Part shown: in pieces, positions 59,151-61,839 of the stretch
How positions within the stretch are numbered: the first letter of the stretch is position 1
Layout: the number at the start of each line of letters is the position of its first letter
Assembly: GCA_963811105.1 (NCBI GenBank)
Contig: CAWEPZ010000011.1
Location: 160,001-224,000 of the forward strand
Direction of reading: 5' to 3'
Origin: Candidatus Bathyarchaeota archaeon
Lineage (GTDB): Archaea; Thermoproteota; Bathyarchaeia; Bathyarchaeales; Bathycorpusculaceae
DNA length: 64,000 nucleotides
The notes under the pieces: generated by a model
The model's database searches: none
What the model was told of the DNA's origin: nothing
The model's input: only the letters and a program-made list of their open reading frames with translations
Program-made: the position numbers and the translations under genes

Positions 59151-59857
59151 AGTCTTGATGCTCCCTAAAACTTCAATTGCGGAATGCCATCCACTAGGAA
59201 GTAGCATCATGATATCTTTCCGAGAGATTTATTAATATTTCGCCCAGTGGTTCTGGTAACTTCAGGATATTTCGCTCAGATGTATTTGTAGTTAACGGTA
59301 GTTAGATGAACTTTTATTTAAGCCGTACCCCCATAGAAAAGACTGAGAAAATCAAGCATTAAAGAATTATAAATTAGATCGTTTGAGCGTTATTTTGTTT
59401 TAAGTGGTCAAAGCTGTCAGCCTTTACTCGCGAGATTGGAGGACTGAGAGGAAAAAACTTCATACAACTTTAACCGATTCCTATTCAACCAAGTTAGCTT
59501 AAAAGTTTTGCCCCGAGTTGCTACTGTTGAGTCATTTGCGGTTGAGAGCCATAAAAAACAGAAAACTAGGCTTAAAAATATAGTTGATGTATTATCGTTA
59601 GGAATTACATTTCTTCAAACGATTTTTTCCGTTATTTGGTAAAAAAGCCCTTTTGTGCGATATTTGTCCCCTACCATTAGGACTAAAAACTAAAGACCGA
59701 TAAGGGCAATACCCAAAAATTGAAGAAGATAGCTGCTTCACAACAGTTAGCACAGGAAGTTTTGTCTTGCCAATTTGCAAAAAGTGCCTGGCGGTTGTAC
59801 ATTAGACGTTGGTTCAGAATTCTTTACTAAAGCTTTTTAGGGAACTCTCGAATTTTA

Positions 59858-59933
59858 GAGGGCAATCGGCGGGTGAGTGGAGTCTCCTACCCGTTCCGCC
59901 AACCAAAAATAAAACCCGGGAGTAGGGAGAAAA
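59858..59933 (+). promoter_or_regulatory. Candidate riboswitch-like leader of the queT-queC operon
   Basis: GGCGG/CCGCC stem whose loop (TCTCCTAC) is complementary to the SD region (GTAGGGAGA), with an A-rich linker and a competing hairpin. A TTTTTAG TATA-like box lies at 59834-59840. Confidence 0.55.
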
Positions 59934-60437
59934 ATGAACTTAAATCTGCATACGAAAGATTTAGCTTTAATTGCGGTATATGCGGCGCTTTATGCAACGC
60001 TTGTTGTTGTTCTTGGAGGTATCTCTTATGGGCCTATTCAGGTTCGCGTTGCAGATTCAATGGTTGCCGCCGTTCCCTTACTCGGTATAGCTGGAGTTTT
60101 AGGTCACACATTTGGAGTATTCATTGGAAACATTTTCTCTTCAGCCGGTCCCATCGACCTTCTTAACACCATTCCATCTTTTGTCATGTCTTTTGTCGTC
60201 TACTATGTTTATGAACACTCTAAGAATAACTACAGTGTAATCGCAACTTGTGTAGCTTACTCAGTTGTCTTAGGCACAACGGTAGGATGGATGCTATCTT
60301 ACCTATACGGATTGCCACTACTGCTTACAATCGCTTACGTAGCGACAGGAAACGTCGTAGCAACTGTCTTGATTGGATGGCCCGTATTTATTGTTCTTAA
60401 AAGATCTGGGATTTTCGGAAAACAGTTTGGAAACTAA
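59934..60437 (+). CDS. queT: QueT (COG4708) queuosine-precursor transporter family protein
   Basis: IAVYAALY.......ISYGPIQVRVAD...AVP, G..IGNIFS..G..D; adjacent to queC. Confidence 0.88.
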   Translation: MNLNLHTKDLALIAVYAALYATLVVVLGGISYGPIQVRVADSMVAAVPLLGIAGVLGHTFGVFIGNIFSSAGPIDLLNTIPSFVMSFVVYYVYEHSKNNYSVIATCVAYSVVLGTTVGWMLSYLYGLPLLLTIAYVATGNVVATVLIGWPVFIVLKRSGIFGKQFGN

Positions 60438-60460: not shown

Positions 60461-61117
60461 ATGAATCCAACAAAAAAATGCATCATTATTCTCAGCGGTG
60501 GTCCAGATTCAGCCGTAGTTGCGTACTGGGCAAAAAAAGAAGGCTATCAGTTGTTCCCTATAACTTTTAATTATGGCCAAATTGCCGTAAAAGAAACAGC
60601 GGCAGCACAAAAAATCGCAGAAAGCCTTGGTACTAAGACGAAAAACGTCGACCTGTCAGCTTTGAAAACAGTTTTCGGCAATGTAACCTCGCTCTGCAAC
60701 ACCAACATCCCCCTAACCTCTGAGTTCAGCCAACCCATAATTGTTCCTTTCAGAAATGCGATTTTCCTCTCAGTAGCGGTTTCTTATTCGGTTTCGGTTG
60801 GATCTGACAAGATTTTTTATGGCGCGCATGGCTCAGACGAACCTTTCTACCCTGACTGTAGACGAGAATTCTACGAAGCGTTTGAAAAAGCGGCAATGTT
60901 AGGTACAGGTGAGAGCATCAGTATCCAAGCTCCGTTCAGCGGCAAACGCAAATCCGACGTCATCAAGAAAGGCGCTGAACTCGGCGTCCCACTCGAGTTC
61001 ACTTGGTCCTGTTACCGTAATGCTGAGAAGCACTGTGGCATATGCGAGTCATGTGTGAACCGCAAAAAAGCCTTCCAAGAATCAGGCATACTAGATTTAA
61101 CAAATTATGAAGTATAG
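60461..61117 (+). CDS. queC: 7-cyano-7-deazaguanine (preQ0) synthase
   Basis: SGGPDS PP-loop, FNYGQ, VPFRN, YPDCR, TWSCY...HCGICESC..R. Confidence 0.95.
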   Translation: MNPTKKCIIILSGGPDSAVVAYWAKKEGYQLFPITFNYGQIAVKETAAAQKIAESLGTKTKNVDLSALKTVFGNVTSLCNTNIPLTSEFSQPIIVPFRNAIFLSVAVSYSVSVGSDKIFYGAHGSDEPFYPDCRREFYEAFEKAAMLGTGESISIQAPFSGKRKSDVIKKGAELGVPLEFTWSCYRNAEKHCGICESCVNRKKAFQESGILDLTNYEV

Positions 61118-61286: not shown

Positions 61287-61839
61287 ATGGATGTATATGA
61301 AGCACCCATTCATGAAAGACGCTCAATTCGAGCCTTCATAGACAAACCAGTTTTTAGAGAAAAGCTTGAAAAAATCCTTGAAGCAGGTAGACTGGCTCCC
61401 TCAGCCAGAATTTTGAGCTTTGGCATTTTGTTGCAATGAGGGATAGCGATAGTAGAAAAGTCCTCTCTAAAGGTCTATATGCAAAGTTCCTCACCCAAGT
61501 GCCGCTTGTAATTGTGACGTGCGGTGACAAAAAAGCCTCGCCTGACTGGTATGCAATGGAGGTAGCTTTAGCTGTTGAAAACATGATTTCAACTGCCGTT
61601 AGAGAAGAATTAGGCACCTGCTGCGTAGGAAGCTTCGGCGGAAAAGAAATCAAGGAACCATTAAAGCTCCTGAAAACTTTGAAGTGCTCTTACTTTTAGC
61701 GGTATGTTATGTAGGAGAAAAACTTGATTTATCAAGCAACCTTTTGAATCTTGTAAGTTCAAGAAAAAAGTTAGACGAAGTTGCCAACGAAGAAACATTT
61801 GGTGAGCCTTTAGTACTTCAAAAAGTTCCAGAGCTCTAA
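61287..61839 (+). pseudogene. Nitroreductase family gene with two or more frameshifts
   Basis: [16 protein letters not shown]...AGRLAPSAR / WHFVA...ALAVENM...LGTCCVGSF / PENFEV...RKKLDEV are split over different frames. Confidence 0.85.

Follow-up and report, generated by a model that had tools for sequence, protein, structure and literature searches.

A candidate preQ0-responsive riboswitch in the queT-queC leader of Bathyarchaeia

Introduction

Bacterial preQ1 riboswitches of classes I, II, and III (Rfam families RF00522, RF01054, and RF02680) are the closest described counterparts of the RNA considered here, namely, the leader of the queT-queC genes in a 64,000-nucleotide stretch of a Candidatus Bathyarchaeota archaeon genome (GenBank assembly GCA_963811105.1, contig CAWEPZ010000011.1, forward-strand positions 160,001 to 224,000; hereafter, this whole stretch is called the window, and its own numbering is used). 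To our knowledge, only a small number of riboswitch classes have been described in Archaea, and a still smaller number have been tested there. Archaea put preQ0 into tRNA to make archaeosine (PMC5372724). Neither a description of this leader nor any archaeal preQ0 or preQ1 riboswitch was found in open full-text literature (PubMed Central and bioRxiv, main texts only), and the word “archaea” does not occur in a review of preQ1 riboswitches published in 2024 (PMC11625349).

An initial reading of the window, made from the sequence alone (the first-pass annotation), had suggested a 7-deazaguanine-sensing translational switch upstream of queT. The distribution of the leader, its gene context, covariation in the proposed repressed fold, and the lack of an Rfam match support this suggestion as a candidate. 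We consider it likely that positions 59868–59930 comprise the aptamer and the expression platform of an undescribed class of metabolite riboswitches, which would repress translation of queT-queC and whose ligand would most probably be preQ0. In the proposed structure, stem P1 (59868–59872 with 59896–59900) would close the loop of an H-type pseudoknot, and the 3′ part of this loop, consisting of an anti-Shine–Dalgarno (anti-SD) segment UCUCCU, AC, and CCG, would pair with the tail, consisting of CGG, GU, and the Shine–Dalgarno (SD) sequence GGGAG, forming a long interrupted helix P2.

Comparison With Known preQ1 Riboswitches

The leader was compared with Rfam 15 using cmscan. With permissive filters and E ≤ 10, the region 59600–60100 yielded no match to preQ1-I, preQ1-II, or preQ1-III and only four unrelated families, all with E ≥ 4.8, while the 91-nt slice 59855–59945 yielded, again at E ≤ 10, no match of any family. 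Six homologous loci searched at E ≤ 1 gave only a spurious CrcZ row, and at the Rfam gathering thresholds the whole window contains one tRNA only. Thus, the placement of the leader outside the known preQ1 classes, proposed in the first-pass annotation, agrees with the searches against all three models.

The likeness to preQ1-I concerns both topology and context. Both RNAs are laid out as H-type pseudoknots in which an A-rich loop L3 comes after a 5-bp P1 and P2 is at the SD region; both reside in leaders of queuosine or 7-deazaguanine genes, including queT and queC; and the loop nucleotides, which in preQ1-I converge on the P1/P2 junction (PMC11625349), would do so here. The differences are, however, substantial. 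The archaeal leader is about 63 nt long (59868–59930) compared to about 34 nt in preQ1-I; its loop L1, 2–3 nt in preQ1-I, comprises 13–22 nt, starts with GUGAG, and is capable of forming an additional hairpin, Px; and its P2 may reach about 12 pairs, arranged as three blocks, instead of 3–4 pairs. Among the named loci examined, moreover, it occurs in archaeal records only. The specificity C of preQ1-I, preceded by U or A, adjoins the P1 3′ strand on its 5′ side (PMC11625349), whereas in the archaeal leaders this place (loop L2) is occupied by UU in 151 sequences, CU in five, AUU in two, and AU in one. These counts, as well as the loop lengths, refer to 159 parsed sequences, selected by a pattern that required at least four out of five P1 pairs and several fixed letters.

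Similarity to preQ1-II, the “COG4708/queT motif,” includes the position upstream of queT, the comparable length, and the involvement of the entire SD in the pseudoknot helix (PMC11625349). At the same time, preQ1-II, restricted to Bacillota, forms an HLout-type pseudoknot of four helices, one of which is the embedded hairpin P4 (PMC11625349), whereas L3 of the archaeal leaders (11–24 nt, and exactly 11 nt in 101 out of 159 sequences) is mostly too short for a P4-type hairpin, and the extra hairpin is found in L1, where it competes with the SD helix. The queT context and the presumed ligand family are shared with preQ1-III as well, but the latter also belongs to the HLout type and its SD is far from the pocket (PMC11625349), while in the archaeal leader the SD lies inside the pseudoknot.

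A second, smaller leader, here called motif 2, precedes a QueT paralogue that is 30–36% identical to QueT of the window (L027:1985-2065 (-), L028, L030, and L317-L328; the handles of loci, genomes, and families are ours). It consists of the stem GGUAG/CUACC, UUU, CCG, an 8-nt loop with AC at its end, an A-rich run terminated by AAAAAC(C), CGG, and the ribosome-binding site. It resembles the main leader in the CCG...CGG pairing, the A-rich block, the 5-bp P1, the location immediately ahead of the ribosome-binding site of a QueT gene, and the lineage in which it occurs, and differs from it in the length (about 45 nt), L1 (UUU), L2 (8 nt, ending in AC as the preQ1-I rule prescribes), and the lack of an anti-SD segment. 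BLAST identified motif 2 in 14 out of 301 genomes of the order, four of which (G150, G136, G099, and G097) have no match to the main motif. Its stem is invariant and shows no covariation yet, and its slice has no match in Rfam.

These comparisons bear on one alternative, according to which the leader is a highly diverged preQ1-I riboswitch with Px inserted in L1, a shortened L2, and an extended P2. We regard it as rather unlikely. The common topology and gene context are what it would explain, and motif 2, which combines CCG...CGG and AAAAAC with AC in front of the P1 3′ strand, resembles an intermediate between this leader and preQ1-I; nevertheless, RF00522 has no match at E ≤ 10 even in the 91-nt slice, the U/A–C dinucleotide before the P1 3′ strand is replaced by UU in almost all leaders, the archaeal element is twice the size, and motif 2 itself lacks a match in Rfam.

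Structure of the Leader

The alignment of 148 trimmed motifs (MAFFT, alignment A7) shows P1 to be paired in 98.8% of cases, with two-sided changes in three of its five pairs. In the window, its strands are GGCGG, 59868–59872, and CCGCC, 59896–59900. The first pair is GC in 102 sequences, AU in 24, GU in nine, UA in three, and CG in one; the second one is GC in 146 and AU in two; and the fifth one is GC in 130 and CG in 18. The CG form of the fifth pair is found in six families (f1, f26, f27, f30, f35, and f37), and therefore arose more than once. The covariation score of P1, 0.155, exceeds that of shuffled alignments, 0.061 (none out of 500 as high), every slid control scores lower, and RNAalifold recovers P1 unprompted.

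The second helix of the pseudoknot is formed by the anti-SD segment UCUCCUAC, 59883–59890, and the tail segment GUAGGGAGA, 59922–59930, the latter containing the SD GGGAG, 59925–59929, at 4 nt before the ATG codon of queT, 59934. This pairing, P2a, was tested outside the column-based tool, as the length of the tail linker varies. Among 155 distinct loop–tail pairs, cognate duplexes have the mean energy of −13.10 kcal/mol, compared to −11.20 kcal/mol (standard deviation 0.16) for permuted ones, with none out of 2000 permutations as low; the energy of the window duplex according to RNAduplex is −13.3 kcal/mol. The positions flanking the core CUCC/GGAG were then considered in those 126 of the 159 parsed sequences that carry this core. 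The pair inside the core is formed in 90 sequences (69.2 on average after shuffling, none out of 2000 shuffles as high), and the next one, across a 1-nt bulge in the tail, in 92 (58.3; none out of 2000). On the outer side, the first pair is formed in 112 sequences (106.9; 12 out of 2000), the second one in 90 (71.6; none out of 2000), and the third one yields no signal in these sequences. The identity of the bulged tail base varies among homologues.

The 33 sequences that lack the core include completely different yet complementary helices, that is, UCCGAC/GUCGGA, CCACC/GGUGG, CCUUCC/GGAAGG, CCCUCU/AGAGGG, CCCCCU/AGGGGG, and GCCCCCU/AGGGGGC. The complementary helix CAUCUCC/GGAGAUG occurs as well. 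P2a alone has 6–9 pairs in the parsed sequences. We also noted that in L133, L152, and L153 the P2 3′ strand reads GUCGGA instead of the SD-like GGAGG, and that the QueT reading frames of L152 and L153 have about 45 additional N-terminal residues; gating of expression may differ in these loci.

Both helices of the H-type pseudoknot that the first-pass annotation had drawn over the SD as its repressed fold thus covary, and the two pairings, P1 and that between the loop and the SD region, are retained in orthologous leaders, as it had proposed to check. Pairing of the loop with the SD region was drawn correctly as far as it went, but the helix is likely longer, as it probably continues via AC/GU into P2b, formed by CCG, 59891–59893, and CGG, 59917–59919. 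CCG and CGG can pair in 95.5% of 148 sequences.

RNAalifold also predicts that GUG in L1 pairs with YAC at the end of the anti-SD. Considered as five pairs (columns 10–14 with 24–28 of A7), this hairpin, Px, is paired in 86.3% of cases and has four out of five pairs changed on both sides; e.g., the pair 11–27 is UA in 108 sequences, GC in 13, and CG in four. Its covariation score is 0.222 compared to 0.116 in shuffled alignments (none out of 500 as high). In the window, the Px strands are GUGG, 59877–59880, which may be called the anti-anti-SD, and 59887–59890, i.e., the 3′ half of the anti-SD. The nested structure with the minimum free energy (MFE) predicted for 59868–59936 consists of P1 and Px, with the energy of −12.5 kcal/mol compared to −8.2 kcal/mol for P1 alone. 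Px is compatible with P1, whereas Px and P2a are mutually exclusive, since both use alignment columns 24–28 (59887–59890). Compensatory changes in both Px and P2a are what a switch would predict, and the mutually exclusive structures of the leader, which appear to tie a putative aptamer to an expression signal, are a general feature of riboswitches.

The active fold suggested by the first-pass annotation, in which 59870–59877 pair with 59887–59893, is not conserved: it can be drawn in the window with the energy of −6.5 kcal/mol and excludes P1, but its covariation score in the 148 sequences, 0.079, equals the score of shuffled alignments, 0.079 (284 out of 500 as high), and its pair 5–29 is broken in 18 sequences where the change is compensated in P1 instead.

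The unpaired regions contain four conserved blocks: GU after P1, CCG, UU before the P1 3′ strand, and AAAnCCC at the end of L3. G6 and U7, which follow P1, are invariant in A7, and L1 starts with GUGAG (59873–59877 in the window) in 124 out of 159 parsed sequences. The L2 nucleotides of the window, U59894 and U59895, complete the block CCG–UU, 59891–59895, immediately 5′ of the P1 3′ strand. L3, 59901–59916, consists of an A-rich linker, 59901–59914, and ends in an invariant A-A-A-n-C-C block; in the parsed sequences the end of L3 is AAACCCC in 102 cases, AAAACCC in 32, and AAAUCCC in 25, which is partly enforced by the parsing pattern. The A and C columns of L3 are invariant in A7. The ligand of preQ1-I is bound at the P1/P2 junction (PMC11625349). 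By analogy, since the loop ends of an H-type pseudoknot meet at this junction, the ligand pocket of the archaeal leader would be formed there by GU(G) of L1, UU of L2, and AAAnCC of L3, and the GUGAG block may be a part of the pocket or a junction element.

The TATA-like box TTTTTAG, 59834–59840, that had been noticed upstream of the leader is indeed present, the distance to P1 being 28 nt, near the 20–25 nt given originally. In 158 homologous leaders, the A+T content peaks at −34 to −28 relative to the first base of P1 (0.89 at −30), the peak being preceded by an A-rich stretch at −39 to −36, and the best TATA-like 8-mer is centered 26–32 nt upstream of P1 in 97 leaders. Given the position of the A/T box and the usual spacing of archaeal promoters, the transcription start is predicted 2–6 nt before P1, at approximately 59861–59866.

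Distribution of the Leader

In order to identify homologues, the covariance model R1 was built from 26 orthologous leaders, with only the 5-bp stem supplied as structure. Homologues of the QueT protein were found in 50 out of 61 related genomes. While orthologous QueT proteins share 59–82% of amino acids, the cores of their leaders are almost invariant; judging by these comparisons, conservation is stronger in the leader than in the protein encoded downstream.

R1 has matches in 115 out of 151 genomes sampled from the order, covering all 12 families, with one match in 111 genomes and two in four; in 95 out of 151 genomes of the class sample, representing 54 out of 79 genera; and in 30 out of 151 genomes of the phylum sample. 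Families with matches outside the class are f44 (nine out of 15 genomes), f56 (three out of three), and f60 (two out of two). The genome from which the window originates has one copy of the leader. In genomes with two or three copies, one copy is found ahead of each QueT paralogue.

A further set of loci was obtained by a degenerate pattern scan of named genomes; of at least 120 stretches found, 80 were listed and tested with R1. The model matches 43 of these 80 loci, and all 43 have archaeal titles: most belong to Ca. Bathyarchaeia or Ca. Bathyarchaeota, and the remaining ones are a metagenome-assembled genome (MAG) of Ca. Methanomethylicota, MAGs labeled Nitrososphaeria or Nitrososphaerota, one “archaeon,” and a single contig end, possibly mis-binned, of Promethearchaeota. 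The other 37 of the 80 listed loci have bacterial titles, and none of them matches R1, nor does any of ten pattern matches in viral contigs.

Several copies are unusual. In L160:81-264 (+), a complete motif of the variety here called type C is followed by a 33-aa open reading frame (ORF) and then by a partial second copy (the 3′ half only) before the QueT gene, which looks like a local duplication or rearrangement. The third copy of genome G278, L141:81-162 (+), has degenerate letters in P1 and the junction and still stands ahead of a QueT paralogue; it may be decaying or have an altered specificity. The weak R1 match L146:81-127 (+) (E = 1.4e-4) was rejected as a false positive, as it reads as the T-arm and acceptor end of a tRNA.

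Putatively Regulated Genes

The gene following the leader in the window, 59934–60437 (+), encodes a predicted transporter of 7-deazaguanines or queuosine precursors, an ECF S-component type protein (QueT; PF06177, E = 3.6e-21, 76.4 bits with the cut-off of 33.7). It is followed 23 nt past its stop codon by queC, 60461–61117 (+), encoding 7-cyano-7-deazaguanine synthase (PF06508, E = 9.3e-60). The Pfam matches confirm the original assignment of this gene pair, and the two genes are probably co-transcribed.

To characterize genes downstream of the leader, we considered the first ORF past each match, which yielded 147 distinct ORFs of at least 100 aa, with 23 near-duplicates from the genus of the window omitted. 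The Pfam domain QueT is found in 140 of these 147 ORFs. As for the other ones, L148 was discarded as a weak false RNA match inside the rpS4e gene; the ORFs selected in L098 and L088 are in a wrong frame, and each has a QueT homologue downstream; and the remaining exceptions are L070, which has no family match when scanned singly, and, by elimination, its relatives L072, L100, and L107. QueT homologues also lie downstream in the loci where the first ORF selected was too short. The L070 group (L070:1574-2275, L072:1574-2275, L100:151-846, and L107:626-1312) encodes a membrane protein of 229–234 aa without a match in Pfam or NCBIfam. The N-terminus of this protein is distantly QueT-like (hhalign probability 84%, E = 7e-6, with an alignment not containing the group), and it could be a divergent 7-deazaguanine transporter.

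QueC is encoded next to QueT on the same strand in 65 out of 185 motif loci, which is an undercount, as many loci reach only 1.3 kb. In L232:1504-2277 (-) and L221:1802-2572 (-), the motif directly precedes a QueE-like radical-SAM gene with no queT in between, and in L232 this gene is followed by queC. The five best NCBIfam matches of both radical-SAM genes are all QueE models. These two loci come from MAGs labeled Nitrososphaerota and “archaeon.” On the whole, the genes associated with the motif appear restricted to a single pathway, as is generally expected of a riboswitch, and the regulon is the same as that of bacterial preQ1 riboswitches (PMC5372724, PMC11625349).

Discussion

Taken together, the data are consistent with the following mechanism. 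Without the ligand, GUGG 59877–59880 would pair with 59887–59890 as Px, leaving the SD free and translation on. Binding of the ligand would stabilize the junction and the CCG/CGG pairing, so that P2 would take the place of Px, hiding the SD and switching translation off. In such regulation, the end product of the pathway is expected to repress both an importer and the genes of biosynthesis.

The source genome, whose completeness is 96.65%, contains one TGT (a 544-aa frame), one QueD/PTPS, and QueC, and has no QueF match. Given the presence of TGT, QueD, and QueC and the lack of detected QueF, preQ0 is the last free base of the pathway, and hence the expected ligand.

Several observations weigh against this interpretation or limit it. 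The MFE of the single sequence, folded together with additional upstream bases, is −19.8 kcal/mol and not exceptional (z = 0.26, with 113 out of 200 shuffled sequences folding at least as well), although the fold of a single sequence is uninformative here, since the folding tool is blind to pseudoknots; what decides against chance is the comparison of homologues. The permutation and shuffle tests ignore phylogeny, and related sequences inflate their results. Moreover, the counts for L1, L2, and L3, the loop–tail permutation, and the flank counts for P2a are conditional on the parsing pattern. The changes in P2b, over 148 sequences, are one-sided only, and this pairing is missing in eight type C sequences, which have AAA in place of its 3′ strand, CGG; the one putative compensation, CAG/CUG in L163, was rejected, as these triplets pair only after a one-base register shift and are unpaired as aligned. 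Some homologues, namely, L133, L152, and L153, have no obvious SD in the P2 3′ strand, and thus masking of the SD cannot be the whole mechanism everywhere. Finally, the QueE-like genes of L232 and L221 score 107.7 and 90.9 bits, below the curated NCBIfam cut-offs of 200–206, and substrates of archaeal QueT have not been measured (PMC5372724).

Conservation and covariation establish a structured regulatory RNA without revealing its binding partner. The leader could therefore be recognized by a protein or the modification machinery instead of a metabolite, for example, by a translational repressor or by ArcTGT, whose tRNA substrate it would mimic; a bacterial TGT has indeed been reported to modify an mRNA (PMC1950534). 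This seems unlikely: the unpaired junction bases are invariant throughout the phylum, a single gene family is involved, and the layout with the SD, anti-SD, and anti-anti-SD is typical of metabolite riboswitches. In addition, there is no conserved regulator gene beside the motif among the neighbors examined, which are QueT, QueC, and QueE.

The same architecture might also serve another ligand, such as preQ1, queuine, archaeosine base, 7-carboxy-7-deazaguanine, or guanine. Indeed, the gene association points only to the 7-deazaguanine pathway, the nucleotide just before the P1 3′ strand is U rather than the C that in preQ1-I reads the guanine-like face (PMC11625349), and the substrates of archaeal QueT are open to question (PMC5372724). 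We consider this quite improbable: the motif also occurs before QueE-like and QueC genes without queT, which fits feedback by the end product of the pathway, and, as no QueF was detected in the source genome, synthesis of preQ1 is not expected there. Moreover, preQ0 is the substrate of archaeal TGT.

A constitutive structure stabilizing the mRNA or tuning translation without switching is highly improbable, since, apart from the general ability of stable 5′ stems to protect transcripts, nothing specific speaks for it, while two mutually exclusive and yet compensated pairings, Px and P2a, are difficult to explain without alternation, and the motif is confined to one pathway.

Returning to the preferred reading, that of a preQ0-responsive riboswitch, a further step would be to regard the leader as the founding member of an archaea-specific preQ0 class. 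In such a class, a pocket of L1 GU, L2 UU, and L3 AAAnCC would replace the specificity C; control would be exerted by a three-way exchange of the SD, anti-SD, and anti-anti-SD; the members would be found in the majority of Bathyarchaeia, as well as in lineages of the Methanomethylicota type and other Thermoproteota; and a smaller sister motif, motif 2, would follow the preQ1-I rules. We lean toward this broader proposal, but only slightly.

If correct, it would bring the number of structural solutions for recognizing preQ-type bases to four, imply that archaea control the supply of the archaeosine precursor by RNA, and make RNA sensing of 7-deazaguanines common to Bacteria and Archaea. It would also offer a ligand-controlled expression element for Bathyarchaeia, a very abundant but poorly tractable lineage of sediments and soils, and a natural test case for gating of SD-dependent initiation in archaea. 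With about 190 aligned sequences, natural compensatory variants among them, biochemical tests can be set up without difficulty.

Other Features of the Locus

The coordinates given in the first-pass annotation for the stem, the loop segment, the SD region, the linker, and the ATG codon are all exact in the window sequence. Upstream of the leader, a proteasome subunit gene lies on the opposite strand, and the approximately 720 nt between this gene and the leader contain no convincing ORF. The part of this spacer that separates the queT promoter from the divergently oriented proteasome gene, 59211–59833 (about 620 nt), has no ORF exceeding 60 aa and no Rfam match; so long a stretch is unusual in a compact archaeal genome. 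Downstream of queC, a nitroreductase-family gene, 61287–61699 (+), is split into two overlapping frames, 61287–61439 and 61436–61699, both of which match PF00881, indicating a frameshift or an assembly error.

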